IMG/VR virus record: IMGVR_UViG_3300042276_000285
DNA: 64,000 nt
Strand: one strand, 5' to 3'
Origin: an uncultured virus (IMG/VR IMGVR_UViG_3300042276_000285)
Taxonomy: Duplodnaviria > Heunggongvirae > Uroviricota > Caudoviricetes
In this document: piece after piece, positions 1-38,735 of the stretch
How positions within the stretch are numbered: position 1 is the stretch's first letter
How the letters are laid out: each line of letters opens with the position of its first letter
Made by a program: the position numbers and the translations under genes
The notes under the pieces: model-generated
The model's input: only the letters and a program-made list of their open reading frames with translations
Told to the model about the DNA's origin: nothing
Database searches by the model: none

Positions 1-26
1 CTAATTGGTTTTAATAATAGTTAGCG
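1..26 (+). other. attI-like proximal recombination site of array 1 (may extend left of window)
   Basis: CTAATTGGTTTTAATAATAG|TTAGCGG. Nt 1-23 are the exact reverse complement of 41969-41991 at the end of array 2; no hairpin arm precedes this GTT. Confidence 0.7.
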
Positions 27-809
27 GTAATGCGAACCAAACACATCATCCACCGCTATGTTATAATATTCCTTTTCCTTTTCAATCCCAATAAATCTTC
101 TGTTCAAATCCTTAGCACCTAAACAAGTTGTCCCACTACCCATTGTGTTATCAAGTACATACTCGTTTTCTTCACTATATGCAGTAATCAACCACTTTAT
201 TAAATCCAAAGGTTTTTGAGTTGGGTGCTTTTGGTCTTGTCTTCTCCATTGTTGTGGATAGTCAAGTACAGTAATTGGGTGTCTTGTTCCTTTATTGTCA
301 GTCTGCACCCCTTTTATTCCGTACTTCATATTGTTTTGTTTGTTTGGTGTCCATTTACGTTTATACGGCTTTCCTTCCGTAAGTTGTGGTAAGTAATAAC
401 TTGCACTTTCACCAAATACTAATATCATTTCGTGTTTTTTAAGTGGCATATATTTAGCGGTAAAAGGGCTTCCACACTTACTTTTCTTCCAAACCATATC
501 GTATCTAAATAACCTTTCGTTACTAAGCGCAAGTTTAAAAGCAAACATTCCAGCACCAAACAAAACAATATTTCCCTTTGGTTTTAATATGCGTTCATAT
601 TCAACCCACAACTTGTTTAGGTCTAAAACACTATCCCATTTATTTGCAGTCGTTCCATAAGGCAAGTCAGCCAAAATAAGTTGAACAGATTTATTGGGTA
701 TCAAAGGAAGAATATCCATACAATCCGCATTGAACAAAGCACTACCGCCAACATTGGCTATATGTAATGCCTTATTTCCTGATTCGTATTTAAGTTTTTC
801 TATATCCAT
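21..809 (-). CDS. DNA methyltransferase, N6-A/N4-C family (beta class)
   Basis: DLPYG motif IV, HPTQKP, VLDNTMGSGTT SAM-binding motif, FIGIEKE. The start lies in the attC1 loop and the stop is the TAA of the core at 20-23. Confidence 0.9.
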   Translation of the reverse strand: MDIEKLKYESGNKALHIANVGGSALFNADCMDILPLIPNKSVQLILADLPYGTTANKWDSVLDLNKLWVEYERILKPKGNIVLFGAGMFAFKLALSNERLFRYDMVWKKSKCGSPFTAKYMPLKKHEMILVFGESASYYLPQLTEGKPYKRKWTPNKQNNMKYGIKGVQTDNKGTRHPITVLDYPQQWRRQDQKHPTQKPLDLIKWLITAYSEENEYVLDNTMGSGTTCLGAKDLNRRFIGIEKEKEYYNIAVDDVFGSHYR

Positions 810-876
810 AAGCTCCTACTTCGTATTAATTTTTTTGGTAGTTTATCGGCACTACACATAGCCCTATCCGTTATAC
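746..876 (+). repeat. attC-like site 1 (131 bp)
   Basis: CGCCAACattGGCTATATGTAATGCC ... GGCACTACACATAGCCctatccGTTATAC. Confidence 0.85.
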
Positions 877-958
877 CTCATTGCGCCAAAAAAATTGTAA
901 ATAAATTTGAAAGCTAAATACATGGCGCAACGCACGCAAAACAGAAAAAGTTTTGCTG

Positions 959-1952
959 GTATAACACCATGTATATTTTATAGCTGTATCGTTCATTTAT
1001 TAGGCGTTTCTGCGTAAATCCGTTTTAATAATTTTCCCACCGCACATTAGTTTTTTCAAAACTATTTGGATTCAGATATTTCTTTTATGGAGTTTTCCCA
1101 TTTTTCAATTGATTCCTGATAGCTTTTAATGTTTTTTGTTAAGCTATCAATAGACCTATGTTTAAGGTCGTTTAACTTTTCGGCATCTAATTTTATTCCA
1201 TATTTTTCAGCTAATTTTTTATCATCTGCCGATATTTTATCTTTTTCAGACAATATGCTTTCGAGTTTTGCAATGGCTTCTTCTTTAGTATGAAATGGAA
1301 TAAACTTTTTATGTCCGCCGGAATAATCATAATAATCTCCAATAGCATATGTAAATGAACCGTCATCTTTACCAAAAAATGAAATCAATCTCAATCTTTC
1401 CTCATAGCTTTCGTTAAATTCAGCCATATCCATGATTTTCAAATCATATCCAGTAACAAGAATATACTTTATGTCGCCACAGATATAATCAGCCATTAAA
1501 TCAAATGTTTCAGGCTTAATTTTATCAATAGCAGACTTTATATATTCTATTTTATTTCTAAATTCTTTTGTTATCTCTCTATGTCTTTTTTCTAAACGAG
1601 ACATTTCGTCTAATCTTTGATTATACTCTTTTTTATAACGTTCTTCAACTTCTTTAATCCGTTTTTCTTGCCATGAAACAGCGGGAAAATCATGCAAACT
1701 TCTAACAACGAAGTTTTCACCAGAAGGAACTTCCTGATTATTTACTATAAAAACTTCCTGCACTATCTTTTCTTGTGCATTAAGATTTCCAATAACTACT
1801 ACTTTTTTACCGTCTGTTGTGTACTTAAATTCATTCATTGTTTTATATTTTAAAGTTTAAAAAATCCCTCTCAAAAATTATTAAAACTACGTCAGTTTTT
1901 CATTGAACATTCTGCATTAATCACGCTACAAAACATACATTTTCCGTTACCT
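959..1952 (+). repeat. attC-like site 2, loop expanded by a whole gene
   Basis: Arms ATGTATATTTTATAGC / GCTACAAAACATACAT; inner IR TTTTAATAATTTT / AAAATTATTAAAA. Confidence 0.8.
1062..1838 (-). CDS. Hypothetical phage protein (coiled-coil rich) inside attC2 loop
   Basis: 258-aa ORF with A/T-rich leader; no recognised motif. Confidence 0.8.
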   Translation of the reverse strand: MNEFKYTTDGKKVVVIGNLNAQEKIVQEVFIVNNQEVPSGENFVVRSLHDFPAVSWQEKRIKEVEERYKKEYNQRLDEMSRLEKRHREITKEFRNKIEYIKSAIDKIKPETFDLMADYICGDIKYILVTGYDLKIMDMAEFNESYEERLRLISFFGKDDGSFTYAIGDYYDYSGGHKKFIPFHTKEEAIAKLESILSEKDKISADDKKLAEKYGIKLDAEKLNDLKHRSIDSLTKNIKSYQESIEKWENSIKEISESK

Positions 1953-1962
1953 GCAATAAAAA

Positions 1963-2169
1963 TTACTTGTCATCTCTTTTAGGGCAAGTATATCTAACAT
2001 CGCCTTGCAAGTATTTAATCGCATTCCAAAGGTCATCTAATACTATTGTGCCAAGTGGTAGTAAGTTCCCTTTTCCATCTTTTACGCCAGATAGATAAAT
2101 AGCCAAGTCTTTTAAACTATCAGTTCCTACTATAATTTTTTCTTGCATTGGTTTGTTGTTATCTTCCAT
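1963..2169 (-). CDS. Hypothetical cassette protein (MEDNNKP...)
   Basis: ORF fills body 1946-2194; ATG at 2169. Confidence 0.65.
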   Translation of the reverse strand: MEDNNKPMQEKIIVGTDSLKDLAIYLSGVKDGKGNLLPLGTIVLDDLWNAIKYLQGDVRYTCPKRDDK

Positions 2170-2187
2170 AATCGTAATTTTAAAAGC

Positions 2188-2317
2188 AGGTAACAACGTG
2201 TATAAAAAATAGCTGTTAAGTGCTTTGGTTAATGTTATTTTATTTTTGTTTACTCTTTTACTAATTCAATTTTTAAGTGTGTTAAAACGCTACATTTCAT
2301 ACACAAATACGTTGTGC
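2188..2317 (+). repeat. attC-like site 3 (130 bp)
   Basis: GTGTATAAAAAATAGC / GCTACATTTCATACAC arms, GTT at 2311. Confidence 0.8.
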
Positions 2318-2332
2318 TTCATTAAAACGAAA

Positions 2333-3175
2333 GCACAACATGCAATATAAAACATGCTTAGTGTAGTGCTTCGTTTCAATGTTTCTACAAGTTTGACCAT
2401 AATTAAATATTTTTTTGCCCGCCCGCTTTGGTTTTTTCAAAACCATTAGGTTTTCGTAGTTTTGCAACAAATTCAAATCCAGTTCTTACATTGCCGTTTT
2501 GTCCAAACCCATTGCCATTAGTTTGTACTTGTCTTACTTCTTCAAGCATAAAACCTATCTCAATTAAAATTTTAATATGCCAAGAAAAAGCATCCACAAT
2601 CTTTCCTTTTCGTATATGGTTCTTAAAATTTAGTATAAACAACCCATCTTTTTTCAAAACCCGATACGCCTCTTTCCATGCTTTAATGTGTAAATTCCGA
2701 TAATCTTCGCCCCATTGCATTTTACCGCTATTATTATCGTTAAGAGTTCTACCCAACTTATGTGTGTATGTATTCCTACTACTTCCGTCATTAGCATTGT
2801 GGCAATCTGCCATTCTGTTGCCATATGTTGGGCTTGTGCATATTGCATCAAATTCGCAATTCGCAAATTGCAAATCCGTAGCATCTCCAACAATAGTTCC
2901 TTCTTGCATACCCGCCCATTCTGGTTCAATTTCAACACCTATTGTATCAAAAGGCAAGCTATGTATCTTTCCTGTCCCAGCGAACGGGTCTAAAACAGTC
3001 TTGCATCCTTGAAGCATTTCTTCAAATACTGGTAAAAGTGCATCTGTATATTTAGCTGGGTGCTTTGGTTTATTCATAAAAATCCCTCCCTAAAAAATAT
3101 TTAATTATTACCGTTGTGCTTCGCATCATAGTTTCTGCGTAATTGTCGCACGTTTCATATTGCTGTCCGTTATGT
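2333..3175 (+). repeat. attC-like site 4, loop holds a methyltransferase gene
   Basis: GCAATATAAAACATGC / GCACGTTTCATATTGC arms, GTT at 3169. Confidence 0.8.
2403..3077 (-). CDS. DNA methyltransferase (probable N4-C/N6-A)
   Basis: HPAKY, VLDPFAGTG motif I, TSPTY motif IV, YRVLKKDG. Confidence 0.85.
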   Translation of the reverse strand: MNKPKHPAKYTDALLPVFEEMLQGCKTVLDPFAGTGKIHSLPFDTIGVEIEPEWAGMQEGTIVGDATDLQFANCEFDAICTSPTYGNRMADCHNANDGSSRNTYTHKLGRTLNDNNSGKMQWGEDYRNLHIKAWKEAYRVLKKDGLFILNFKNHIRKGKIVDAFSWHIKILIEIGFMLEEVRQVQTNGNGFGQNGNVRTGFEFVAKLRKPNGFEKTKAGGQKNI

Positions 3176-3415
3176 GGCATTTGTTTCAATCTTCCAGTAC
3201 ATACTACAATAATCAGGGTAAAGTGGCTTTTCTTTTGCAGAATGTTCACCGCTAAACACCTTCATTTCTGTATGGTCAAGAAAGTCTTTCATAAAATAAT
3301 GTTCACCACTTTCGTAATCTTTTTCAGTCTTGTAAGCACAAAAACGCCACATAACAACAGGTATAGTTAATGCTCGTTCTTCTGCTAAGTCGTAATATTT
3401 TTTCTTTTTACTCAT
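3170..3415 (-). CDS. Hypothetical protein crossing attC5/body junction
   Basis: Starts in attC5 loop, GTT core read as Val, stop at next core. Confidence 0.6.
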   Translation of the reverse strand: MSKKKKYYDLAEERALTIPVVMWRFCAYKTEKDYESGEHYFMKDFLDHTEMKVFSGEHSAKEKPLYPDYCSMYWKIETNAT

Positions 3416-3479
3416 TTCTATTTTTAATTAAAGTGAATACTTCTATGGTCGCACTAATCATACCTGTGGTACGTTAGCA
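3349..3479 (+). repeat. attC-like site 5 (131 bp)
   Basis: ACAGGTATAGTTAATGC / GCACTAATCATACCTGT arms. Confidence 0.8.
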
Positions 3480-3485
3480 GTAATA

Positions 3486-4247
3486 CTACATTCCATCTCC
3501 GAATGAAGTTATCACATTAAATTCTTTTTCTTTTCTTTTTTCTTCCACCCTCTTTTTTGAATTAGTAAAATGTTCTAATTCTTTTTCAATGCCAATGAAA
3601 TTTCTATCAGTATTTATACAAGCAATTCCTGTTGAACAACTCCCCATCGTATTATCTAGTACCAAGTCATTTTCATCAGTATATGTTTTGATAAGATATT
3701 CCAACAAATCAACAGGTTTTTCAGAACTATGTAATCTACTGTAATTATCTACACACTTAAACTCTAAAATGTTTGTTGGAAATCTTGTTGTTTTACCACC
3801 TTCGTAATCTCTTGTATTTGTTCCGTGATATGCTTTTCCATTACTGCAACCTTTTGCACTATTTGTTGGTATGTGTCCATCTGTTATTTGTGGATAGTAT
3901 TTACCTTTTTTGAAAATACATATTTCTTCAATTTTTCTAATTGGCATTCGTTTAGCGTGAAAGAAATTAGTTCCTTGATTTTTCAACCAATACCAACAAT
4001 ATCTAAAATCCTTTTCATTGCTTGAAATTATTTTGGTTGTAAATGGCTGTGAAGCAAATAAAGCAATCGTTCCGTTTTTCTTTATTATTCGGTTGTATTG
4101 TTTCCAAAGTTCAATCATATCAATATGTTCATCCCATTTTGGTGCTGTCATCCCATAAGGTAAATCACAACAAATAAAATCAATACTTTTATCAGGTATC
4201 AATTTCATTTGTTCTATTGTATCTCCGTATCTTAAATCTATTGTCAT
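3486..4247 (-). CDS. DNA methyltransferase, N6-A/N4-C family (paralogue of 21..809)
   Basis: DLPYG, HSSEKP, VLDNTMGS, FIGIEKE. Confidence 0.9.
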   Translation of the reverse strand: MTIDLRYGDTIEQMKLIPDKSIDFICCDLPYGMTAPKWDEHIDMIELWKQYNRIIKKNGTIALFASQPFTTKIISSNEKDFRYCWYWLKNQGTNFFHAKRMPIRKIEEICIFKKGKYYPQITDGHIPTNSAKGCSNGKAYHGTNTRDYEGGKTTRFPTNILEFKCVDNYSRLHSSEKPVDLLEYLIKTYTDENDLVLDNTMGSCSTGIACINTDRNFIGIEKELEHFTNSKKRVEEKRKEKEFNVITSFGDGM

Positions 4248-4338
4248 AATTTTATTTTAATATTTTACCACCACACAAAAAAGAAAAGAAAAAGGTTCTG
4301 TTCTTCGATTGAGTATTTGTGGTTTAAATCCGTACTAC

Positions 4339-4432
4339 TGCTAACAGCGTATATAAGAAATGGCACATAAACATTTGTGCTAAATTTCAAGTTCGTGCAA
4401 GTGCCACTTCTCATATACGCAAACCGTTAGCG
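4339..4432 (+). repeat. attC-like site 6 (94 bp)
   Basis: GCGTATATAAGAAATGGCAC / GTGCCACTTCTCATATACGC arms. Confidence 0.9.
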
Positions 4433-4433
4433 G

Positions 4434-4847
4434 TCAGTTTTTTACCTTTAAATAATAAGCATACAACTCCTCTGTTGTCAAATGACCAACCGTGTGAATA
4501 TACCAACTACCACCCCTGTATCTAAACCAGCTATCAGCTTGCATTTTTTTAGCAATCCAGTCTGCGAACAAAACCGAACCGCTAACATTGTGCAAATGTA
4601 AACCGCTCGCTTCGTTGTTGCGTTCAGCCTCCGCGCGTTCTAAAAAATCATTCTCAAAATATTTTTTAATCTTTTTGCGCTCAGATGTTTTTAATTTAGT
4701 TATTTGTTTTTTGTGATATCCGGCTGTATAGTATTTGCCATTCCTTTTTACAGAATCGACAGTATATTCTAAAATTTTGTCGTTTATAATAATTGTAACA
4801 TCATGTGTAAATGTTTTTACTCTTTCTTTAAAATAAGTTATTTCCAT
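4434..4847 (-). CDS. Hypothetical fusion protein (attC7 loop + body)
   Basis: Junction peptide GLHLHNVSGS. Confidence 0.7.
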   Translation of the reverse strand: MEITYFKERVKTFTHDVTIIINDKILEYTVDSVKRNGKYYTAGYHKKQITKLKTSERKKIKKYFENDFLERAEAERNNEASGLHLHNVSGSVLFADWIAKKMQADSWFRYRGGSWYIHTVGHLTTEELYAYYLKVKN

Positions 4848-4932
4848 CGCGCGTTAATTTATAGTTTCGTAACTCGTATCAATGTTCATCTGTAATTCAA
4901 TAGCGGTCAGCACTTGCACTTTGCCGTTATAG
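4580..4932 (+). repeat. attC-like site 7
   Basis: GTGCAAATGTAAACCGCT / AGCGGTCAGCACTTGCAC arms. Confidence 0.8.
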
Positions 4933-5442
4933 TGCATTGCCCACCCGCTCAAAAACGAATTGCTTCGGAAGTAAATTTGAGCATAGGTAAATACTTTTAA
5001 ATGGTACGCCCTTTAGTTCTATTCCTGTCTTTATATAATCAATTCGTTTATCAAACACCATTATTTCAAATTTGTGGGTACTTAATAGTCCGTACCGCTT
5101 TTTGCTATCAAATAAACCTGCTTCATTAATCAACATTGCAAATGGTTTATTAAGTCCAAACAACCGTTCTAAAATCGGTTCTCGTAGGCTGTATGGTGGG
5201 TTACTTATAATTAGGTCGTAATTTTGTTCAGGTTCATACTCGAAAAAGTCTTTCCCTTCGTCAATATGTGAGTGTATAACATTATGGCTTTCACTCAGTA
5301 GTTTCACAAAATTACTTTCGTTCGTATCAAACGGACACCAAACGGTTGTTTTCGGTGGTAAATATGGTAAAAGCGGTACTATTGCGTAATCTTTAGTATA
5401 GTACTCATCGGCTTTGTTCTGTTTAAATTGGTGATTTGCCAT
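4927..5442 (-). CDS. Small phage adenine DNA methyltransferase
   Basis: DEYYT, VWCPFD, GKDFF, IISNPPYS motifs. Confidence 0.8.
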   Translation of the reverse strand: MANHQFKQNKADEYYTKDYAIVPLLPYLPPKTTVWCPFDTNESNFVKLLSESHNVIHSHIDEGKDFFEYEPEQNYDLIISNPPYSLREPILERLFGLNKPFAMLINEAGLFDSKKRYGLLSTHKFEIMVFDKRIDYIKTGIELKGVPFKSIYLCSNLLPKQFVFERVGNAL

Positions 5443-5456
5443 CGCTCAAAAACGCA

Positions 5457-5586
5457 CTATAACAATTTATATAAGTAATAGCCGTTGTAGTGCAATTATT
5501 AGGGCTTATTACTCTGTTTAACATTTGCAATTATTTCAAAGTTCGTGTTTCAAATCGGCTACTACTCATATAAGTATCCGTTATAA
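5457..5586 (+). repeat. attC-like site 8 (130 bp)
   Basis: TTATATAAGTAATAGCCG / CGGCTACTACTCATATAA arms. Confidence 0.85.
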
Positions 5587-5592
5587 AACATT

Positions 5593-5727
5593 TTAAGACA
5601 CATCATATGTCGAAAAATATTCACCATCTATATAAACTATTGCTTCATTTTCACGGTACTTTATTTTAATGTTTGAGCCGTAATTTAACTTTTCTCTGAG
5701 TAATTTAAGTAAGTCTTCTAAATACAT
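5593..5727 (-). CDS. Small hypothetical cassette protein (44 aa, MYLEDLLK...)
   Basis: Translated by hand; fills body 5580-5746. Confidence 0.55.
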   Translation of the reverse strand: MYLEDLLKLLREKLNYGSNIKIKYRENEAIVYIDGEYFSTYDVS

Positions 5728-5739
5728 AATAAAAACGTT

Positions 5740-5835
5740 TTATAACAAAAGCTATAAACAAAAAGCCTCTGTTTGGTTTGTACTTTTAATTATATTTTAT
5801 GGTTCGGCTTTCAGTTCATAGCCAAGCCGTTAGCG
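5740..5835 (+). repeat. attC-like site 9 (96 bp)
   Basis: GCTATAAACAAAAAGCC / GGCTTTCAGTTCATAGC arms. Confidence 0.85.
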
Positions 5836-6123
5836 TTCAGTTTGCCGATTATTGCAAATTTTCCAAATTGTTCCGTTCAGACATTTTCCATTGTATTGGT
5901 CTAAGCATGGTCTGTAATGGCAAACCGCATCGCTAACATGCGGTTTATTGCAGTTGCTCAGCTCGTCCGAACTTTTTGCCAACGCGCGGGGAAGCCATTC
6001 AAAACTTATAACCGAATCAACTCTTTTTTGTCCCTGTTTTTCGTACCAGTCAAATAGCTGGTCTTCCTCGGTTTGCGTTTCTGGTGTAATATGTGGCACA
6101 TTATCTGTAAATTGTATTTTCAT
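5830..6123 (-). CDS. Hypothetical fusion protein with Cys-rich C-terminus
   Basis: Junction peptide NCNKPHVSDA. Confidence 0.65.
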   Translation of the reverse strand: MKIQFTDNVPHITPETQTEEDQLFDWYEKQGQKRVDSVISFEWLPRALAKSSDELSNCNKPHVSDAVCHYRPCLDQYNGKCLNGTIWKICNNRQTER

Positions 6124-6212
6124 CCTACGCTCGTATTTTTATGGTTATTTACTCGTATCAACTTATTCGGTTATTGTAGCGGCAACCGACAACAAACCGC
6201 CAGCCGTTAGCA
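5931..6212 (+). repeat. attC-like site 10
   Basis: GCGGTTTATTGCAGTTGC / GCAACCGACAACAAACCGC arms. Confidence 0.8.
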
Positions 6213-6345
6213 ATAATAAAAACTAACAGTATCAATATGTACCGCCTATTTTGTCACTGCCGCAATTTGCACAGCTTGTAAAATTAAAATGTTCTATATT
6301 ATATGGATTCCATTTGTATCCACATTCCATACATTTACAATAGTC

Positions 6346-6519
6346 TTATTTAAAATCGTTTTTACTATTGCTAACATTATGCAAATTTAAATTTTTAATT
6401 TTCCATTCTGCATATTCGTTCATTGCGTTCAATATCGTGGCTTCCTTGCCTATATCTTCCAAACAAGGTTCCCAACTTCTCCAAATTTCAAGCATTTTTA
6501 AAGTGTCGTTTTTACTCAT
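6346..6519 (-). CDS. Small fusion ORF (57 aa) followed in frame by a stop-separated Zn-ribbon module
   Basis: MSKNDTLKM...NLNLHNVSNSKNDFK* then DYCKCMECG...CANCGSD to TGA at 6232. Confidence 0.5.
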   Translation of the reverse strand: MSKNDTLKMLEIWRSWEPCLEDIGKEATILNAMNEYAEWKIKNLNLHNVSNSKNDFK

Positions 6520-6569
6520 AATATTTCAATTTAAAATTAAAAATCAAAACTTGCACTTGTCCGTTAGCA
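6369..6569 (+). repeat. attC-like site 11
   Basis: TGCAAATTTAAATTTTTAATT / AATTAAAAATCAAAACTTGCA arms. Confidence 0.75.
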
Positions 6570-6578
6570 ATCAGTTTG

Positions 6579-6971
6579 CTAACCATCTATTCCACATTTA
6601 ATACACTTTAATGCAAATGGTATGTCAGATTCTTCGTTTGTTGTCCACTCGTGTTCGCAAACCGCCGTTTCGTCATTTATTTGCGCTTCGTGCTTAACGC
6701 CACATTCGCACTCATAAATAACTTTTGTAATCGGGGCTAATTTGTTGCATAAAGGGCAAATAAATTCCTTCACTTTGCTAACACCATGCAAAGGTAATGC
6801 TGCGCTCTCGTCCAAACTGTTTCCCGATGCTCGTTCTAATTCAAGAATATAATTAGCCAAATATTCTCTTTCATTAATCGTTAGAATATCAGCTTTTGTT
6901 TTGCCAATTAAAGCACTCACAATCATTTTTCGTTCCAATCCAAGTTTATTCAATTTGTTAATGTAATCCAT
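6579..6971 (-). CDS. Hypothetical fusion protein with Zn-ribbon C-terminus
   Basis: Junction peptide DESAALPLHGVS; CxxC pairs. Confidence 0.7.
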   Translation of the reverse strand: MDYINKLNKLGLERKMIVSALIGKTKADILTINEREYLANYILELERASGNSLDESAALPLHGVSKVKEFICPLCNKLAPITKVIYECECGVKHEAQINDETAVCEHEWTTNEESDIPFALKCIKCGIDG

Positions 6972-7057
6972 CGCTCGTATTATTTAATCGTTATTTACTC
7001 GTATCTACTTTCGTGCAGCTTTCAGGGCAGCACATACCCTTGCATTTACCGTTAGCA
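6776..7057 (+). repeat. attC-like site 12 (same shell as 35599-35965)
   Basis: ATGCAAAGGTAATGCTGC / GCAGCACATACCCTTGCAT arms. Confidence 0.9.
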
Positions 7058-7063
7058 GTAATG

Positions 7064-7306
7064 CTATTTGTGCTTATCATAAAATTCAATTAAATGATAT
7101 ATGCACTTCGCATCTCCCGTACTGCTAAACATATACTTTTGCCTCAAATATTCAACCATTTCATCAAGACTTAATGTGTTCCAATCAAACATAGGTGAAG
7201 CACTACTGCTAACACCATGTAAAAAACATTGCTCGGCAAGTTTCTTAGCATCTGGCTTTGGTTCACCTATTATAATCACTTTTGGCTTTTTGTCTTTATC
7301 TTTCAT
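7064..7306 (-). CDS. Hypothetical fusion protein
   Basis: Junction peptide CFLHGVSSSA. Confidence 0.65.
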   Translation of the reverse strand: MKDKDKKPKVIIIGEPKPDAKKLAEQCFLHGVSSSASPMFDWNTLSLDEMVEYLRQKYMFSSTGDAKCIYHLIEFYDKHK

Positions 7307-7339
7307 ATCGCAACGATTTTTTACATTTCAACGTTGTAT
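7207..7339 (+). repeat. attC-like site 13 (133 bp)
   Basis: ATGTAAAAAACATTGC / GCAACGATTTTTTACAT arms. Confidence 0.8.
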
Positions 7340-7491
7340 TTCACGGTAAGACCGAGAGGTTCAGAATCTACTTTAAAAATTCTTGTTTTAAAGTAGTGAA
7401 CCGAAGGGATTACGCGACGGTAGGAGCGAGTGAAATACAACGGCTTCGTGTAAACTTGAAATATGTGACCACTTTAACCGGAGCGAGCGCA

Positions 7492-7768
7492 ACACAACAA
7501 AAGTGTAAACGTAATTTCAAACGCGAGCTTAATTTCATTTCAAGTTCCTGTATTGCTCCCAGCCTTTAAAATTGAAATCTCTTTATTCATTCGCTCAATG
7601 CGTACATCGTATTTTTTAACATCGGTCATATAACCTAAATTTTCGTGTACTTTTCTCAATTCAAGTAACCTATCTCTATAAATTTCAAATGTCTTTAATA
7701 TGTCCATGATATTTCAATTTTAAATTCTTTCTCAATCCAGAAACTACGTTTACACGAAGCCGTTAGGC
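7492..7768 (+). repeat. attC-like site 14
   Basis: GTGTAAACGTAATTTC / GAAACTACGTTTACAC arms. Confidence 0.75.
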
Positions 7769-8053
7769 TTCATTTACCTCCGCACTCATAAATAATTCCC
7801 ATGCCTTTTGGTAGTTCTTATGCCACATTTTTTGTAACTCAATATCTTTATCACTCCAATTGTGTTTAGGCTGTAATTCGGCATAAGAATCATCATCCCA
7901 ACCCATTACAACGCCATACATAAAAGCTATCATCTTATCTTCGCTGCAATCTCTGGAGGTAAATGCGAATGTTTCGTGCAACCTTTGTAATGGGTTTGTT
8001 GGCGTTTCCATCTCATCTCTTGTTTGCCATTTTAATTCTGTATTATCTTTCAT
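7763..8053 (-). CDS. Hypothetical cassette protein (MKDNTELK...)
   Basis: ORF between CCWCCGCAC direct repeats; stop in core. Confidence 0.7.
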   Translation of the reverse strand: MKDNTELKWQTRDEMETPTNPLQRLHETFAFTSRDCSEDKMIAFMYGVVMGWDDDSYAELQPKHNWSDKDIELQKMWHKNYQKAWELFMSAEVNEA

Positions 8054-8086
8054 AATATTGTTTTTATCCCACCGCACAAAACGAAA

Positions 8087-8216
8087 GCCTAACAATGTAT
8101 AAAAATAATAGGCGGTTACGTGCGTGTAGGTAGTTTATAATCATTTAATTAATTGTATTCTGTTTGCGAAGTTCAGCGTTTCAAATCGCCTACTATTCTT
8201 ATACTCACCGTTACCG
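8087..8216 (+). repeat. attC-like site 15 (130 bp, related to site 8)
   Basis: GTATAAAAATAATAGGCG / CGCCTACTATTCTTATAC arms. Confidence 0.85.
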
Positions 8217-8286
8217 TGCATGCTAAATTTTAATTTAGTGCCGTGCTTAATCAGAAAGTGTTTAACCTTTAAGAAAAAGCACGACA

Positions 8287-8635
8287 CGGTAACAATGTGT
8301 AACTACAAAATGCTCGTAGCTCGTAAAACCATTTAGCCATCACACAACTCTGTTACCAGTAAGTCTTATCTTACCATCATCTTTTGGCTGTGTTTCCATT
8401 ACAATAAATTCACTTCCGTCTGAATTGTGTCTGTGCAATATTACAATTGCATCTAATTCAACTTTCCCATAAACAGAATCACCATAGTCTATGGTAACTT
8501 TTCTTGTTTTTGTTTTTCTTGTAGGCATATTTATTTATTTAGTTGCCCTCCGCGCTGTACTTTGGGCTGTTAATTCTCGTATCAAAGTCGCTGCAAATTT
8601 GAAGCAGCATTCAGTAGTTACACCAACCGTTAACG
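8287..8635 (+). repeat. attC-like site 16
   Basis: GTGTAACTACAAAATGCT / AGCATTCAGTAGTTACAC arms. Confidence 0.85.
8340..8528 (-). CDS. Small hypothetical protein in attC16 loop
   Basis: 62-aa ORF flanked by CCATCACAC / CCTCCGCGC. Confidence 0.6.
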   Translation of the reverse strand: MPTRKTKTRKVTIDYGDSVYGKVELDAIVILHRHNSDGSEFIVMETQPKDDGKIRLTGNRVV

Positions 8636-8977
8636 CACATGCTGAGAATCGTATTCATCAGCAGCTTTGCGTAATTCGTTATATTCTATAACAGGTACAG
8701 TAAACTTTTTGAAACGGTGTGCAATCTTTGAACCATCTACATATTCAGCAAGGTTTCCGCAGCTTTCAACAAAAGCACGTGCGTTAACACAAGCTAAATG
8801 CAAACCGCCTTCGGTATCTGAATCGGGCTTGCCAACGCTCGCAATAAATTTGGCTGTTAACTCTTTATTTCTGTAAAGAAATTCAGTTATAACTTGTGAG
8901 TTAGTCGTGTCATTGTTAACCTTCCAATCGGTTTTTTTATCAATGAAGGTTAGTAGTTCATTTAAAAATTTTTCCAT
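8630..8977 (-). CDS. Hypothetical fusion protein
   Basis: Junction peptide GGLHLACVNARA. Confidence 0.7.
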   Translation of the reverse strand: MEKFLNELLTFIDKKTDWKVNNDTTNSQVITEFLYRNKELTAKFIASVGKPDSDTEGGLHLACVNARAFVESCGNLAEYVDGSKIAHRFKKFTVPVIEYNELRKAADEYDSQHVR

Positions 8978-9061
8978 CGCTTCGGTATTTTAAAGTTATT
9001 TGTTATCTGATAATTCATCGGTTATTCAAAAGGCGGTCAGCACTTAGCTAAACCGTTAGCA
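8782..9061 (+). repeat. attC-like site 17 (family of site 7)
   Basis: AGCTAAATGCAAACCGCCTT / AAGGCGGTCAGCACTTAGCT arms. Confidence 0.85.
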
Positions 9062-9113
9062 ACAATGCCTTTAAATAATTGCCAACACTCAAAAGCCTTA
9101 CACAAGGCACAGT

Positions 9114-9537
9114 TGCTAACACGTTGTATAAAACATGCTTGCGGTAGTGCCTCGTGCTAGCTTCGGTGCTTAATTGGAGCAAAATAATAATGCCCCACGC
9201 ACAACAACTACTTTTTAATTTCAGGCCAACTCCACTCGCGCTCTCCTGTACCCAAAACAGCAGAAGTTACCCAAAGGTTTTCTTCTCCATCAAGTAGTAC
9301 TTTAAGGTTTACGCACTCGTCACCCCACACAGCAGTAATAACCGCAGGTGCATCTTCTTGGTAATTGTTCATCTTGTCCTTTTGCTCTTCATCACAATGA
9401 TAAATCACAATTCTACCTATTGTTGGTGTCATAACTAAATATGGGTTTTACAAAGCCCGCCCAGGGCATTATTATTTTTTCTCTCGTGTGAAGGTCAGTG
9501 CAAATTTGCCGTACTTGCCATATTGCCACCGTTAGCT
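9114..9537 (+). repeat. attC-like site 18 with non-matching (hybrid) outer arms
   Basis: Both boxes present; inner IR AAAATAATAATGCC / GGCATTATTATTTT; outer arms do not pair. Confidence 0.6.
9208..9432 (-). CDS. Small phage protein (MTPTIGRIVIY...WSWP)
   Basis: PTIGRIV / PAVIT / VNLKV / W-WP pattern typical of a common small phage protein. Confidence 0.75.
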   Translation of the reverse strand: MTPTIGRIVIYHCDEEQKDKMNNYQEDAPAVITAVWGDECVNLKVLLDGEENLWVTSAVLGTGEREWSWPEIKK

Positions 9538-10288
9538 ACAAAGCCAACAACTGTTCGTACTTTTTTAAACATTTACGGCAAATTAAGCGTGTGTCTATTT
9601 TTGTCGGTTGCTTATCCAACGCACGAAATGGAATATTGCCGTCAGGGTGTGTATATTTTGAATCATCTTTTGTTTTATCATAGGTTGGTAAGCCAGAAAG
9701 CGATAATGTATTATAGCCACCATTTTTTACTGAATATCCTGTCGTTTTATGATCTGGTTCGCAAAGAACTTTTCCATCAACGGCAATATGACGTTTTTTA
9801 GTAGCCCAACACAAAGCAACCTTGCGTTCTGCGTTTGGCTCAGTAGCTAACACATTACATAGGTCATTTGCTTTGCTATTCGGATGTTTGGTACTTTTAT
9901 TCATCGTATCTGTTTTTTGAAGTTTTGTAAATTTATTCAGGGGCAAACGCCCCATGTAATCGGCACGGTACCATTCATTCGCCCCACCGCACATCGTAAT
10001 ATCATTGTAACCACCAATTCCAACAACTTTTGCATCATCCCAATTACTTATCCCGTATTTAAACTCTCGCATTTCTGTGTAGGGTTTTCCTTTAAATCTA
10101 ACATCGGGCTTTGGCATCTTATCAAACATGAAGAAACCATCACAGCAATGCAACTGTTTTTCGCTGTAATAAAATACGTGCGTAGCCCTATTCTTTCTAA
10201 ATGGGTTACTCATAAACGCCCAACACTGCAACGAAATGGTAACAATGTGTAGGCGTAATGCCTTCGTTTTTTTAATTAAAGTTTTCAT
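9536..10288 (-). CDS. Read-through fusion of two cassettes
   Basis: Spans attC20, body 20, attC19 and body 19; core mutation at 9968 removes the internal TAA. Confidence 0.55.
   Translation of the reverse strand: MKTLIKKTKALRLHIVTISLQCWAFMSNPFRKNRATHVFYYSEKQLHCCDGFFMFDKMPKPDVRFKGKPYTEMREFKYGISNWDDAKVVGIGGYNDITMCGGANEWYRADYMGRLPLNKFTKLQKTDTMNKSTKHPNSKANDLCNVLATEPNAERKVALCWATKKRHIAVDGKVLCEPDHKTTGYSVKNGGYNTLSLSGLPTYDKTKDDSKYTHPDGNIPFRALDKQPTKIDTRLICRKCLKKYEQLLAL
9845..9973 (+). repeat. attC-like site 19 with mutated core (GGT)
   Basis: ATTACATAGGTCATTTGC / GCAAACGCCCCATGTAAT arms; GGTACCATT where GTTACCATT is expected. Confidence 0.8.
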
Positions 10289-10354
10289 ATACTTTTAGTT
10301 TTTAAGTTTTAAAACGAGTCAGTGGTGGCACTCCGCCTACACCAACCGTTATAG
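10237..10354 (+). repeat. attC-like site 20 (118 bp)
   Basis: GTGTAGGCGTAATGCC / GGCACTCCGCCTACAC arms. Confidence 0.85.
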
Positions 10355-10372
10355 TGCATTTCCATCCGCACT

Positions 10373-35157: not shown

Positions 35158-35259
35158 TTCACAAATACTTGCATCGATGCGACTTATTTTCTATCTTTGC
35201 TAACGTTTCCGCCATGAGTAGTGGCGGTTTTAGAACTACTCACTTTAAATAACAAAATA

Positions 35260-35592
35260 ATGAGCGAATTTGAAAACGGATATTATTGGGTAAGTTATAA
35301 AGGTATGAAACCTGTAATTATGGAAAAAGATAATTATGGATGGAATGCTATGGGTATAGAAACCGAACCAGATTTAACAGATTATAAAGTATTAGGAAAG
35401 GTAAGCGAATGGGATTTGAGCGTACCACAAGCAAATGAATTATCACCGCATGTTAGCGGTAGTGCTTTTCCTAAGTACGATTGCGATGATTGTAAACACT
35501 ACCCCTGCCAAACAGAACCAGATAGCCACGGAAGCCGACAAAGAAAAATAGAATACGGTAAATGCGGAGACCATAGCGAAAGATGTGATTAG
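35260..35592 (+). CDS. Hypothetical fusion protein, Cys-rich C-terminus
   Basis: Junction peptide NELSPHVSGSA. Confidence 0.65.
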   Translation: MSEFENGYYWVSYKGMKPVIMEKDNYGWNAMGIETEPDLTDYKVLGKVSEWDLSVPQANELSPHVSGSAFPKYDCDDCKHYPCQTEPDSHGSRQRKIEYGKCGDHSERCD

Positions 35593-35598
35593 CATTAC

Positions 35599-35965
35599 CG
35601 CTAACGGTAAATGCAAGGGTATGTGCTGCCATGAAAGTTGCACAGACAATGATACGAGTAAACGACAAAACAAATAAAAGCGATGGAAAAAATAACTTAT
35701 TACACAAACAGCGGTGAATTTATAGCTGACAAATTACTGCCATGTCCTTTTTGTGGGGGTGAGCCTGAATTTATAACAATCGGAAACTACCACACAAAGA
35801 GTAGAAAAGCACAAATTGAATGTACCAAATGCCATGTAAGGCGAACAACTGGCACAATTAGAAATGACCTTGAATGGTGTGGACGTAAAGCAATTGAGGC
35901 TTGGAACGCGCGTTGGCAAGACAGTTCGGACGAGAGCGCAGCATTACCTTTGCATGATGTTAGCG
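35599..35965 (-). repeat. attC-like site sharing its shell with 6776-7057
   Basis: GCTAACGGTAAATGCAAGGGTATGTGCTGCC and GGACGAGAGCGCAGCATTACCTTTGCATG identical to the reverse complement of site 12. Confidence 0.9.
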
Positions 35966-36120
35966 CGTCGTTGCTTAAAAAATACATGACTTTGATAATT
36001 GATTGTGAAGGAGTGGACTTCCTTTATAAAATAGATACAATGCAAGATACACAGGAATGGACAGACGAAGAGGTTGAAGCTTTAACTGAACTTTCAGAAT
36101 CAATTAGCAATGCGCGCTAA
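35683..36120 (+). CDS. Lar-like (restriction alleviation) Zn-binding domain fused to a cassette body
   Basis: LLPCPFCGGE ... IECTKC ... AIEAWN. Confidence 0.7.
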   Translation: MEKITYYTNSGEFIADKLLPCPFCGGEPEFITIGNYHTKSRKAQIECTKCHVRRTTGTIRNDLEWCGRKAIEAWNARWQDSSDESAALPLHDVSASLLKKYMTLIIDCEGVDFLYKIDTMQDTQEWTDEEVEALTELSESISNAR

Positions 36121-36233
36121 CGGTTTGTACAAGTTGCGTTTTAAAACTGACGATTATTTGAAATACTAAAGTAATATTTTTAAAAGCGAAGCGGGGGCGT
36201 TTTCTCCTGCATAAATTTAATACATACAGCAAA

Positions 36234-36929
36234 ATGAAAAATTTAAAAGAAATGACAGAACAAGAAATTCTTGCGTTAACAGATGAAGAAATTACGCTTA
36301 GAATTAAGCTGAAAAAGGCAGAAGAAGGAATTAAATTAGTTCCAAAACCCAAAATGCCTTCCTATTTTGATATTGAAGAACCTGACAAAACAGTTTATTA
36401 TTGCGAGTTATTCGGTGATGATTTGTGTTTTGAAAGCATGGAAGAACTTACTAAATTGATTCAATTGATTTCTGGTAGCGAAACAAAATGTTCGGTTACC
36501 TATGACTACAATAAAGCCGGGTCTGAATATTCTTATATCACGTCAAAAATGAAAACACGTGGTTACAGCTATAAAGAATGGAGTGTGACTGGTTCGAAAC
36601 GTGTTTATTCAATCGAAAAATACAATGCTTGTGTTGATATGATTGCTCAGAACAAAAAAATGAAAGAGCAATATGAAAAAGAATTAAAAGAATATGAAGC
36701 TGCTATTTCGGAAGCCAAATGGATTGAAGATGAAATAAACGACCGTGTTCGCGAAGTTCGTGACAAATATTGGAAACTAAATGAATATTGCCGTAAATTT
36801 AAACTTGATTATTTGCCACTTGCAGACGAAAATGAAGACGTGGCAATGAAGTTTATGGATAAAGCATATTCGTTAACTGACGAACAAAAGGAATACGTTC
36901 TATCAAATTATGCAGGATTAAATTCCTAA
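36234..36929 (+). CDS. Hypothetical protein inside attC loop
   Basis: 231-aa ORF. Confidence 0.8.
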   Translation: MKNLKEMTEQEILALTDEEITLRIKLKKAEEGIKLVPKPKMPSYFDIEEPDKTVYYCELFGDDLCFESMEELTKLIQLISGSETKCSVTYDYNKAGSEYSYITSKMKTRGYSYKEWSVTGSKRVYSIEKYNACVDMIAQNKKMKEQYEKELKEYEAAISEAKWIEDEINDRVREVRDKYWKLNEYCRKFKLDYLPLADENEDVAMKFMDKAYSLTDEQKEYVLSNYAGLNS

Positions 36930-37168
36930 ACAGCTTTGCTGTATGCGGGAGGGGCTTTTAAAAATATGGTTAATTAAGCTCCACCGTTGATTAGATGCAC
37001 GGCAAAAATGCAATTTGTACTTTGTTATAAACTGTAGCCGTGCTTCTTCTAATCTTTTTAAACATACAGTTTTCACGGCTATTGTTTATAACGGTTGGTG
37101 TTTGTTTAGTTTGCCAACCGGATTGCAGAGAATTTTAATTGAAATACTAAAATATCAAATTACGCGCG

Positions 37169-37444
37169 ATGGAAGATTACGAACAAGATTATGACGAATG
37201 TTGCCCGAAGTGCGAACATTCACCGACACACTACCGCAATTGCAGCGAATTGCACTGCGATGAAGGTTATATAGATGAAAATGACCTTGACCCGATAGAT
37301 TTCATGGAAGGTGAAAGTTACATTATGTGCAATGAGTGTTACGGCACTGGTATTGAAGAATGGTGTCCAAAATGTGGTTACGATATTAGCGCACATAAGT
37401 ACGTTGTGCGGCTGCGAGAAGCTAAATTGAAAAGCGCAAATTAA
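37169..37444 (+). CDS. Cys-rich zinc-finger protein inside attC loop
   Basis: CPKC, CNECYGTG, CPKCG. Confidence 0.7.
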   Translation: MEDYEQDYDECCPKCEHSPTHYRNCSELHCDEGYIDENDLDPIDFMEGESYIMCNECYGTGIEEWCPKCGYDISAHKYVVRLREAKLKSAN

Positions 37445-38684: not shown

Positions 38685-38735
38685 AATGGCTGCTAACGGT
38701 AACTTGTAAGTTGTCGGTTTTTATTAACGGATTAA

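Follow-up and report, generated by a model that had tools for sequence, protein, structure and literature searches.

Two sites in the window, the 64,000-nt (64 kb) stretch of viral DNA analysed here, carry the same shell around unrelated contents: site A (6777-7066, minus strand) and site B (35590-35964, plus strand) have a 73-nt and a 44-nt block in common. We suggest, with a probability of about 0.6, that A and B are two copies of a single sub-type within a family of attC-like hairpins that punctuates integron-like cassette arrays in both accessory arms. The arrays probably belong to an integron-like system, so far unrecognised, in Bacteroidota and their phages, and the occurrence of the same hairpin around unrelated protein pieces suggests a built-in shuffling of anti-defence genes.

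One shell around unrelated protein pieces

An inverted-repeat search of the window paired block 1 (6994-7066 with 35590-35662, 73 nt, 88% complementarity) and block 2 (6777-6820 with 35921-35964, 44 nt, 95%), and by length the two blocks top the 410 inverted-repeat pairs of the window. A 44-nt match with two mismatches in 64 kb should lie far above chance expectation. Between the blocks and behind block 2 the sequences of A and B are unrelated. In coding orientation both sites start with TAG-CATTAC(Y)-GCTAACGGTAAATGCAAGGGTATGTGCTGCC...GATACGAGTAAA and end with GGACGAGAGCGCAGCATTACCTTTGCATG(R)TGTTAGC; in pairwise alignment the similarity wanes across an A-rich leader up to the common start context AGCGATGG and returns about 12-15 nt past the common GAACG(A/C)GC. 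The sequence-only reading had described the same shell in both arrays with different cargo and different body, had given this wording for the start and end of both sites and had confined the similarity by a start-side repeat and the GAACG(A/C)GC repeat; the two blocks, the unrelated remainder and the aligned boundaries bear out this description. The parts of the two sites are as follows:

6994..7066, minus strand: site A block 1, starting at the stop codon of the upstream gene, with R core GCTAAC (7051-7056), hairpin 5' arm and GATACGAG leader; 73 nt, 88% to 35590-35662
6821..6971, minus strand: site A loop cargo, the start codon (context AGCGATGG) and N-terminal module of ORF A (MDYINKL...)
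6777..6820, minus strand: site A block 2, the hairpin 3' arm, translated ..SLDESAALPLHGVS, with F core GTTAGC (6777-6782); duplex with the 5' arm -45.1 kcal/mol
6579..6776, minus strand: site A body, the Cys-rich C-terminal part of ORF A; next R core at 6563-6568
35590..35662, plus strand: site B block 1, starting at the stop codon of the upstream gene, with R core GCTAAC (35600-35605), 5' arm and leader
35683..35920, plus strand: site B loop cargo, the start codon and Lar-like zinc-ribbon N-module of ORF B (PF14354, E 1.7e-10; phrog_599, Lar-like)
35921..35964, plus strand: site B block 2, the hairpin 3' arm, translated ..SSDESAALPLHDVS, with F core GTTAGC (35959-35964); -43.3 kcal/mol
35965..36121, plus strand: site B body, the C-terminal part of ORF B, ending with the TAA of the next R core (36116-36121)

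An in-frame TAG...TAA pattern was also noted.

ORF A (6579-6971, minus strand) encodes 130 aa and ORF B (35683-36120, plus strand) 145 aa. By BLASTP the part common to the two proteins is the linker DESAALPLH(G/D)VS with its immediate surroundings, and this peptide is the only one in common because the linker is the translated 3' arm. The N-terminal part of ORF B is Lar-like (PF14354, 41.4 bits against a cut-off of 28.6), and the N-terminal part of ORF A matched no Pfam or PHROG family.

Block 2 was found between six distinct N-terminal and six distinct C-terminal parts (window A, window B, G002/L019, L003, L020 and L021), in a census in which 24-27 bases were exact by search design and near-identity covered about 38-44 nt in the flanks; block 1 lies upstream of block 2 in four of the six contexts. 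The shell of A and B thus recurs in otherwise unrelated phage contigs with four more combinations of cargo and body. At the DNA level the window shares with G002 or G003 only the shell blocks and one non-coding element (window 37468-37682). Body A itself stands behind yet another N-terminal part in a 120-aa protein (P0002), with the junction at ...HGVS. The partners of the linker were listed at the DNA level because a 13-residue linker cannot reach significance in a protein database; a protein homologue search with ORF A returned ORF A itself and one relative of its body only. A blastn search with both regions and one hairpin against a phage collection turned up nothing beyond a methyltransferase relative, three unrelated small matches and a single metagenomic phage without annotation.

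That the two proteins have only DESAALPLH[G/D]VS in common, as had been proposed from the letters of the window, is thus confirmed by BLASTP, and the six contexts of block 2 together with the second N-terminal partner of body A support the proposal that shell, loop cargo and body assort independently. The loop cargos, on whose homology the test of that proposal turned, are not homologous by BLASTP, and the test therefore leaves it standing. Families of similar sites had likewise been claimed; families common to the left and right arrays exist among the inverted-repeat pairs (I3, I5, I10, I11, I17 and I18).

Hairpins, cores and cassettes in two arrays

Blocks 1 and 2 are the two arms of one long hairpin, whose core is GCTAACG/TGTTAGC; it has a bulge of 4-5 nt, and its stem covaries from one site to another. 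On the coding strand a site runs from an R core, (n)TAACGG, through the 4-5 nt bulge, a 5' arm of 10-30 nt, the loop and the 3' arm to an F core, TGTTA(n), and the R core often provides, or comes just after, the stop codon of the upstream gene. Minimal members of the family measure 84-150 nt and are intergenic; expanded members, A and B among them, accommodate in the loop an N-terminal protein module with its start codon, preceded by a conserved leader (GATACGAG ... AGCGATGG), and their ORF continues through the 3' arm into the segment past the F core. The window contains at least 22 such hairpins over its two accessory arms, all on the same strand within an arm, and the GTTAGC core is enriched in it (42 occurrences against 23.6 +/- 4.9 expected, with none of 100 shuffles reaching 42). 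The arrays comprise the following elements, with bit scores from the covariance model R1:

35199..41445, plus strand: right-arm array, with an R core at 35199 and further hairpins at 37521-37668, 37944-38061, 38694-38898, 40986-41134 and 41298-41445 (R1 79.8-97.7 bits)
39205-39867 and 40118-40834, plus strand: right-array methyltransferases, Dam-like and N6/N4 respectively, as cassette genes
41948..41991, plus strand: right-array terminus, an R core (TAAC 41969-41972) and then TATTATTAAAACCAATTAG; attI-like half-site with no adjoining recombinase gene
737..10363, minus strand: left-arm array, with minimal hairpins at 737-885, 2179-2326, 3340-3488, 4330-4441, 5448-5595, 5731-5844, 7198-7348, 8078-8225, 9836-9982 and 10228-10363
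9058-8785, 8786-8631, 8632-8290, 6566-6372 and 6209-5934, minus strand: left-array expanded hairpins
21-809, 2403-3077, 3486-4247 and 4927-5442: four left-array methyltransferase genes
1..44, minus strand: left-array terminus, the same 44-nt end sequence (TAAC 23-20), 84% to 41948-41991

Together the accessory arms hold six DNA methyltransferase genes and one Lar-like gene. Both array ends in the window read TAAC followed by TATTATTAAAACC (TATTAT...), and the window and the near-identical record G001 both stop at the left-array terminus. No tyrosine recombinase was found in the window by Pfam (45 ORFs), PHROGs (77 ORFs) or tblastn with the recombinase of G002, nor in G001 (rated 77% complete); the window is a partial genome.

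The closing stem is retained in 14 of 15 hairpins in full-length minimum free energy folds, the exception being 40998-41122, and the complete hairpin is present in 72 of 117 IMG/VR loci among the matches listed. In a 13 x 13 matrix of duplex energies five R elements have the next downstream F element as best partner, each pair being different in sequence, and the arms of shells A and B pair equally well with each other. The stem consists of two helices around an asymmetric internal loop and has at least 20 bp. An alignment of 73 copies shows compensatory changes in 14 of 24 pairs, three invariant G.U pairs (72/73, 72/73 and 73/73), an invariant TAACGG and a nearly invariant TGTTA, with GTTG or GCTA in four of the 73 rows; the neighbours of the cores vary (GCTAAC, ATAAC and CCTAAC; GTTAGC, GTTATG and GTTAGG). 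Sub-families of hairpins, loops included, occur near-identically in many unrelated viral contigs with differing flanks.

R1 was built from 73 minimal copies and is specific to the GTRTATGAG stem sub-type. On the window all 15 of its sense-strength matches fall on the coding strand of their own arm, and its four antisense matches are weak mirrors of stronger sense ones. Shells A and B gave no match with R1 at E up to 1 with filters off, and their membership of the family therefore rests on architecture and not on the model; the copy of the shell in G002 does score with it (24.3 bits, E 0.007). Rfam 15 placed no family on the hairpins and matched only twister-P3 elsewhere in the window.

Pairing between the 10 nt in front of an R core and the 10 nt that follow the preceding F core covers on average 8.5 of 10 positions over 17 adjacent pairs, 11 of which reach at least 9, whereas the flanks of an R core and its own F core pair at a mean of 5.7 of 10 (one of 16 pairs reaches 9) and all 462 combinations of R and F flanks at 4.9 +/- 2.1 of 10. 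Complementarity is thus shifted by one site, as in integrons. Around the two shells the pairing is 10/10 from F35455 to R35602 and from F7210 to R7054, moderate across body B (7/10) and weak across body A (5/10).

Breakpoints in contigs of four variant metagenome runs, a type of contig that can be chimeric, fall at the same landmarks. The joint 35598 to 36115 leads from R core to R core, with 10 letters in common, and drops the whole site B unit; the joint 40997 to 41969 (runs X6 and X7) leads from an R core to the terminal site; and the joints 38722 to 38874, 38735 to 38863 and 41024 to 41099 lie within loops. Variant contigs part from the window directly after cores at 35606, 37538, 38539, 41122, 35964 and 38898, and at site B three of them split off right behind 35964. 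Breakpoints therefore occur at R and F cores alike, and a mechanism acting on a single strand at a single core would not predict both.

Linked recombinases, candidate mechanism and rival readings

Among eight records examined, four have a PF00589 match, in all four at the downstream end of a co-oriented array, and four have none. In an nhmmer search of 80 loci of the array-linked recombinase family, 118 hairpins lie upstream of the recombinase gene on the same strand, one lies downstream and none on the opposite strand; the covariance model gives 306 matches across 78 of the 80 loci, and 14 of the 59 loci with at least 1500 nt upstream had no hairpin by nhmmer. TAAC followed by TATNATATA stands 40-50 nt before the start codon of the recombinase in 60 of 64 distinct upstream regions; as a regular expression it is found in 61 of 64, one region having it at 8 nt, compared with 39 of 1285 control windows, and the three misses retain AAC. 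The recombinase is Xer-like, with Pyrococcus XerA (4a8e) as best solved relative (E 2e-34 to 1e-42). Its alignment with XerA is continuous, whereas that with VchIntIA is in two pieces with about 48 IntI residues unmatched, and it falls below every NCBIfam cut-off. One 170-kb phage contig has more than 30 hairpin sites. In chromosomes of Flavobacteriia (e.g. Seonamhaeicola, Tamlana and Tenacibaculum) related arrays adjoin related recombinases, with 5-7 sites within the 8 kb flank examined.

Combining these data, we propose a mechanism in which one DNA strand would fold, as does an integron attC or the hairpin of CTX-phage attP, and a Xer-type tyrosine recombinase would swap strands at the core between TAA and C. 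Cassettes, each bounded by R cores, could then be excised and inserted beside the attI-like TAAC-TATNATATA site. Bodies might be exchanged through crossover at the F core, and cargo by homologous recombination between the conserved leader and the 3' arm. The phage of the window would keep two arrays and attI-like remnants without a recombinase in 64 kb, much like a CALIN (a cluster of attC sites lacking an integrase).

A rival reading holds that the hairpins are RNA elements of early or accessory transcripts (RNase III-type processing sites, terminators or insulators around each gene) that, being conserved, ordinary homologous recombination passively uses as short homologies, a situation that would resemble the promoter-early stem-loop cassettes (PeSLs) of T4-type phages. 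All hairpins lie on the coding strand, which folds better; the sense duplex is more stable than the antisense duplex in six of seven cases; and three G.U pairs are invariant in a stem of at least 20 bp with two helices and an asymmetric internal loop, all of which would suit an RNA, as would R cores that overlap stop codons, T-runs after several hairpins and the lack of a visible recombinase in the window. Yet transcript processing leaves unaccounted for the pairing of R-core flanks with the preceding F core across a gene, the core-to-core deletions of unit size and the fixed synteny of array, TAAC-TATNATATA and recombinase (118 hairpins against one; 61 of 64 sites), and the hairpins match no Rfam family. 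We therefore regard the RNA explanation as unlikely.

The spread of near-identical sub-families, loops included, among unrelated viral contigs with differing flanks could alternatively reflect selfish MITE-like inverted-repeat elements moving among Bacteroidota phages, the A/B shell being two insertions that later captured different sequence. That the window shares with G002 or G003 only the shell blocks and element 37468-37682 would fit such elements; but no target-site duplication was seen, the flanks are inverted and not direct, no transposase is associated, and strict alternation of cores, a single orientation and arrays that end at a recombinase are not traits of MITEs, which makes this origin distinctly improbable. 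Even less can be said for A and B as a duplicated gene with its upstream region, in which the coding parts diverged and selection kept the arms. One genome holds both sites in identical layout, as a duplication would leave them. Against this, the arms are 88-95% identical, unpaired leader positions included, and cargo and body are without similarity; the Lar family includes cargo B but not cargo A; and other genomes have four more unrelated pairs of cargo and body between the same arms. Duplication followed by divergence is already contradicted by these data and retains next to no probability.

Several other candidates were rejected. Block 2 as a Bacteroidota promoter has a -7 box TAccTTTG in A and B, but TAnnTTTG occurs, by eye, in about four of nine F elements and a -33 TTG is not at the proper spacing. 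The idea of an early promoter read by a virion RNA polymerase was dropped: the phi14:2 preprint reports no early motif in common (10.1101/2020.03.07.982082), and the 2616-aa protein of the window has no DFDxD motif. With that protein lacking DFDxD and crAss_MUZ_C in the window scoring 23.3 bits, under its cut-off of 27, a crAss-like label is weak. An invertible segment, translational bypass and a local terminator hairpin were set aside because the GCATTACCG-CTAA-CGGTAAATGC fold is not kept at other R cores. Repeats of a diversity-generating retroelement (DGR) do not fit block mismatches that are C/T, C/A and G/A and thus not adenine-specific, nor is there a reverse transcriptase among the annotated ORFs; TAG recoding was discarded, no tRNA having been found.

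Relation to integrons and other shuffling systems

Integrons are considered rare in Bacteroidetes. According to the IntegronFinder 2.0 paper, only empty integrons (In0) were found there at first and later one complete integron in Salinibacter (PMC9024848). The arrays described here are associated with a single recombinase family and a single attI-like site, and if that recombinase acts on these sites they would represent a second, independently organised integron-type system. The open-access literature that we searched contained no description of such a hairpin/recombinase system. If true, it would also give virulent phages a mechanism for gathering and trading methyltransferases and other anti-defence genes, and the translated arm would be a new route to in-frame protein chimeras via site-specific recombination. 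We tentatively extend this to a general model, whose odds seem to us slightly short of even: Bacteroidota and their phages may possess a form of gene capture parallel to integrons, built from a small Xer-type recombinase without the IntI domain, an attI-like TAAC-TATNATATA site and folded hairpins with three fixed wobble positions, which in phages would stock and reshuffle anti-restriction genes. Loops can hold leader, start codon and N-module, and translation runs through the 3' arm; exchange at the cores would thus at the same time lead to in-frame domain shuffling of small anti-defence proteins.

The attC label of the sequence-only reading is right in kind, as judged by hairpin architecture, shifted flank complementarity, breakpoints at cores and, elsewhere, a recombinase and attI-like site; it does not hold in the sense of a canonical integron attC, for the sites are 280 and 365 nt long and seem to keep only TAAC/GTTA of the core consensus, and the recombinase is Xer-like. 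The linked recombinase lacks the IntI insert and none is visible in the window; this is therefore not a canonical integron. In common with integron attC sites, these are imperfect hairpins with AAC/GTT cores between co-oriented, promoter-poor cassettes, their structure is conserved while sequence varies, their strands are non-equivalent and each cassette starts with sequence complementary to the inverse core of its own site. The attC arrangement, an imperfect inverted repeat folding into a hairpin in which an unpaired spacer separates the paired R box (AAC/GTT) from another paired box, is found in A, B and the family, with the spacer taking the form of the 4-5 nt bulge on the 5' side. By contrast, only TAAC/GTTA appears to be retained of the attC consensus RYYYAAC/GTTRRRY, GTTAGC violating RRR at the third position, and the loops reach up to 330 nt and are translatable. 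Sites of the attC type are about 57-141 nt long; the minimal members of 84-150 nt fit, whereas A (about 280 nt core to core) and B (about 365 nt) are far longer. Unlike an integron integrase, the array-linked recombinase is without the IntI-specific insert; its gene is co-oriented with the array and follows it, so that the cassette genes point towards the attI-like site.

As here, integron and CALIN cassettes often encode DNA methyltransferases. A CALIN that includes two methyltransferase genes, with IntI1-active attC sites, is reported from Polaribacter phage P12002L (Qi et al. 2023, PMC9892861); R1 matches four sites around methyltransferase gp54 of this phage, at 38023-39722. What has been reported from phages is limited to small clusters of 2-3 attC sites without an integrase (PMC9892861), compared with which the arrays here, with more than 20 sites in the phage of the window, are far larger.

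Other systems share single features with these arrays. Xer recombination on folded single-stranded DNA operates at CTX-phage attP and in other dif-integrating elements, and pdif modules occur in Acinetobacter plasmids. A Xer-like recombinase, a hairpin of one strand that would form the duplex site and modules bounded by sites of alternating orientation are common to these and the present arrays, but the present arrays lack a 28-bp dif-like site with its pair of conserved 11-bp arms, their hairpin arms covary between sites and the element encodes its own recombinase beside a dedicated attI-like site. The PeSLs of T4-type phages are short regulatory stem-loops, located around small accessory ORFs of hyperplastic regions, to which modular shuffling is attributed; they have in common with the family described here that conserved stem-loops flank small accessory ORFs, whereas these hairpins measure 84-365 nt, have a conserved core and show complementarity of shifted flanks and linkage to a recombinase. 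Finally, in shufflons (Rci/sfx) a tyrosine recombinase lies beside an array with sites inside ORFs and brings about in-frame C-terminal swaps. The arrays in Bacteroidota and their phages likewise adjoin a recombinase, have sites within ORFs and appear to exchange C-termini in frame, but they consist of whole cassettes of unrelated genes in one orientation rather than of inverted alternative C-termini of one gene.

Hairpin shells around different cargo and bodies

Two sites in the window, aligned in coding orientation, have two blocks in common. Together the blocks form a shell around a loop cargo, the N-terminal part of an ORF that reads on across block 2 into its C-terminal part, here termed the body.

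Features of the two sites
6777-7066 (-): site A
35590-35964 (+): site B
Block 1: 73 nt, 88% identity between A and B; from the upstream gene's stop codon, via GCTAACGGTAAATGCAAGGGTATGTGCTGCC, to GATACGAGTAAA
Block 2: 44 nt, 95% identity; 3' end GCAGCATTACCTTTGCATG(R)TGTTAGC
6579-6971: ORF A, 130 aa; start and N-terminal part between the blocks, C-terminal part behind block 2
35683-36120: ORF B, 145 aa; same arrangement

The blocks are the longest two among 410 inverted-repeat pairs in the window and are complementary across ~30 nt, forming the arms of one hairpin with a GCTAACG/TGTTAGC box, a 4-5 nt 5'-side bulge, an 11-bp helix and a 6-bp helix, in that order (duplex energies -45.1 kcal/mol for A and -43.3 kcal/mol for B). 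By BLASTP, the linker DESAALPLH(G/D)VS is the sole stretch common to ORFs A and B; the N-terminal part of ORF B is Lar-like (PF14354, 41.4 bits, cut-off 28.6; phrog_599), and no family could be assigned to that of ORF A. The sequence-only reading, which saw one shell with different cargo and body, was therefore correct. The shared peptide is the translated 3' arm, and its codons are conserved because the underlying DNA is conserved. At 6232-6330 (-) a Cys-rich body behind the F core (the GTTA-type core of the 3' arm) at 6370 forms a 32-aa ORF of its own (MECGYKWNPYNIEHFNFTSCANCGSDKIGGTY) instead of continuing the upstream ORF, showing that ORFs need not be fused across the core.

Four IMG/VR contigs and another three from metagenomes carry the block 2 core, with 24-27 bases matching exactly apart from one base left free. 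Set in register, block 2 has six contexts (window A, window B, G002/L019, L003, L020 and L021); the N-terminal part ahead of it and the C-terminal part behind it are unrelated from one context to the next, with GTTAGC as the exact end of similarity in all six. Four contexts (A, B, G002/L019, L020) also have block 1, with the core variants CCTAAC, GTAACC and ATAAC. Body A recurs in a 120-aa protein behind a different N-terminal part, the joint lying at IHGVS. By BLASTP the cargos are not diverged copies of each other, and the further proposal that shell, cargo and body assort independently is supported by these mosaic contexts. The only other DNA that the phage records G002 (101 kb) and G003 (46 kb) share with the window is a non-coding element, 37468-37682, which is a further member of the hairpin family.

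The window belongs to a tailed phage: it has genes for terminase, portal and virion proteins, two divergent arms and TAtcTTTG boxes that resemble Bacteroidota promoters. A crAss-like label fits it only weakly; crAss_MUZ_C scores 23.3 bits, under its cut-off, and the DFDxD motif is absent from the 2616-aa protein. No tRNA genes were found in the window. Both sites lie within accessory regions with a Lar-like gene and six DNA methyltransferase genes (21-809, 2403-3077, 3486-4247, 4927-5442, 39205-39867, 40118-40834). Four genes stop at TAG and have an in-frame TAA 4-5 codons on, inside the R core, the TAAC-type core of the 5' arm (for example TAG CAT TAC CGC TAA; pairs 35590/35602, 7064/7054, 6579/6566 and 3486/3476); in methyltransferase 21-809, CAT TAC CGC TAA is read as a genuine C-terminus, HYR. 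A type-P3 twister ribozyme match (14526-14592 (-), 41.8 bits, gathering score 39.9) lies between the small early-arm ORFs 14593-14886 and 14224-14502.

A strand-biased hairpin family

Along each arm of the window GCTAAC is always followed by GTTAGC and vice versa, and GTTAGC is enriched (42 matches, 23.6 +/- 4.9 expected). In a 13 x 13 duplex-energy matrix the R elements 7056, 6568, 6211, 4431 and 35600 pair best with the next downstream F element and, because each of these five pairs has a different arm sequence, the arms covary. A scan for TAAC...GTTA with strong flanking duplexes returned 15 distinct hairpins (loops 84-360 nt), each on the strand that is coding in its arm, against 4 and 8 matches in reversed sequence and 1-9 per strand for eight other 4-mer cores; when the 15 are folded at full length, the minimum-energy structure retains the closing stem in 14. 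Minimal hairpins (84-150 nt) occupy intergenic spaces, and expanded members (A, B, 6566-6372, 6209-5934, 9058-8785, 8632-8290 and 38694-38898) hold the start of an ORF inside the loop. Several expanded members have in common a leader, GATACGAG (6 matches, 0.87 expected), and a start context, AGCGATGG (6 matches, 0.83 expected); the leader lies at 4873-4880, 6152-6159, 6998-7005, 8576-8583 and 35651-35658, ~25-35 nt 5' of start codons in the AGCGATGG context. Several array genes share this leader, which is also present in loops of hairpins from other phages.

The minimal-type pattern occurs at at least 117 IMG/VR loci, with a complete GTTA-closed hairpin in 72 among the matches listed, and many sub-families differ from the window copies in their flanks but hardly at all in the hairpin. 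In an alignment of 73 non-identical copies (7 from the window, 66 from 65 loci) TAACGG is invariant, TGTTA nearly so (4 of 73 rows deviate), 14 of 24 consensus pairs show compensatory changes and three G.U pairs are fixed (72/73, 72/73 and 73/73 copies). R1, a covariance model built from minimal copies, finds 15 sense-strand copies in the window and four antisense matches, all weak mirror images of stronger sense matches; with the expanded sites the window total is at least 22 hairpins. The hairpins match no Rfam family. R1 does not match shells A and B even with filters off, the G002 copy being the only shell that scores (24.3 bits, E 0.007), and the link of the shell to the family therefore rests on shared architecture.

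Flank rule and breakpoints at the cores

The 10 nt behind an F core complement the 10 nt just 5' of the next R core, on the far side of the gene or body between them. For these 17 pairs, one of them with a mis-set position that scores low, a mean of 8.5 of 10 positions is paired and 11 pairs reach at least 9; for an R core and its own F core the mean is 5.7 (n=16, at least 9 in one pair), and for all R x F combinations it is 4.9 +/- 2.1 (n=462, at least 9 in 6.1%). Metagenome contigs, not clonal, of four variant DNA runs were aligned to 34500-42500, and their breakpoints include the cores.

Breakpoints in variant contigs
35598->36115: R core to R core, 10 shared letters; whole ORF B unit removed
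40997->41969: R core to the array's terminal TAAC; segment removed
38722->38874, 38735->38863, 41024->41099: joints within loops
35606, 37538, 38539, 41122, 35964 (3 contigs), 38898 (4 contigs): divergence right after cores
35600, 40998, 41969: matching begins at cores; also at 35921, the block 2 start

A recombinase, an attI-like site and a proposed mechanism

PF00589 is absent from the ORFs of the window, of its near-identical record G001 and of G003, and is present in four of eight records examined (G002, G004, G005, G007). In all four a co-oriented array of hairpins has a 266-289-aa recombinase at its downstream end; the G005 array holds more than 30 hairpins within ~23 kb and ends 0.8 kb before the recombinase gene. 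The recombinase has 204 relatives in IMG/VR. Around the best 80 of these 204 loci, nhmmer found 118 hairpins upstream on the same strand, one downstream and none on the other strand (search space 413 kb upstream, 542 kb downstream); 59 of the 80 have at least 1.5 kb upstream, with at least one hairpin in 45 and at least two in 31. R1 gave 306 matches over 78 of the best 80. Among 64 distinct upstream regions, 61 have TAAC followed by TATNATATA (control windows, 39/1285), in 60 cases at a distance of 40-50 nt from the start codon, and the other three keep AAC. Both window arrays terminate in the same 44-nt sequence, TAAC|TATTATTAAAACCAATTAG (1-44 and 41948-41991, mutually inverted, 84%). The right-arm copy is not followed by a recombinase. 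The left-arm copy is where the sequence of the window, like that of G001, runs out, perhaps because the genome ends there or because assembly broke at the repeat. In the complete phage elements at L139 (~8063-8130) and L160 (~7900-8000), GTTA-N6-CGTTTTAATG-N6'-TAAC|TATNATATA comes immediately after the last hairpin; its GTTA-to-TAAC stretch is an empty F-to-R unit forming a mini-hairpin, a hint that units of either type carry genes in their loops.

The recombinase is Xer-like (best solved relative XerA, 4a8e) and below every NCBIfam cut-off. Its alignment to VchIntIA falls into two pieces and skips ~48 residues of IntI, so it lacks the IntI-specific domain. Its closest GTDB relatives (38-57% identity) are nearly all from Bacteroidota, and R1 matches at 26 of 80 GTDB loci. 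Four loci are phage-like in layout (L231, L224, L226, L255), with a TAAC|TA..ATAT site upstream in all three inspected (L231, L224, L226). At 22 loci the hairpins lie downstream on the opposite strand (Seonamhaeicola 7, Tamlana 5, L294 6). Flavobacteriia chromosomal arrays thus laid out differ from the phage arrays; five of them (L267, L268, L291, L294, L264) have 2-7 hairpins of this family opposite a recombinase 40-47% identical to the phage's and a CACAAC|TATTTA-like terminal site ~70 nt past its stop codon. Polaribacter phage P12002L has four R1 matches around methyltransferase gp54, and a CALIN, an attC cluster lacking an integrase, with two methyltransferases and one IntI1-active attC is described for it (PMC9892861). 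In the literature searched, arrays of this kind are not described for Bacteroidota phages, crAss-like or otherwise, beyond the small CALINs of that paper. According to the IntegronFinder 2.0 paper (PMC9024848), canonical integrons are nearly absent from Bacteroidetes.

We suggest that one strand folds and that the Xer-type recombinase exchanges strands at TAA|C. Cassettes would be R-to-R units, bodies would be swapped by crossovers at F cores, and cargo by homologous exchange between leader and 3' arm. The main rival holds that the hairpins have an RNA role and that shuffling reflects passive homologous recombination; the strand bias and the fixed G.U pairs are compatible with an RNA role, which is nevertheless at odds with the flank rule and with the synteny of recombinase and attI-like site, the TAAC-based array end.

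Folding and exchange of a single strand, as proposed here, would resemble the action of integron integrases on folded attC bottom strands and of XerCD on the CTX-phage hairpin. The shifted-by-one flank complementarity of the window arrays is likewise common to integron arrays, where it reflects an earlier circular form in which the start of a cassette paired with that cassette's own inverse core.
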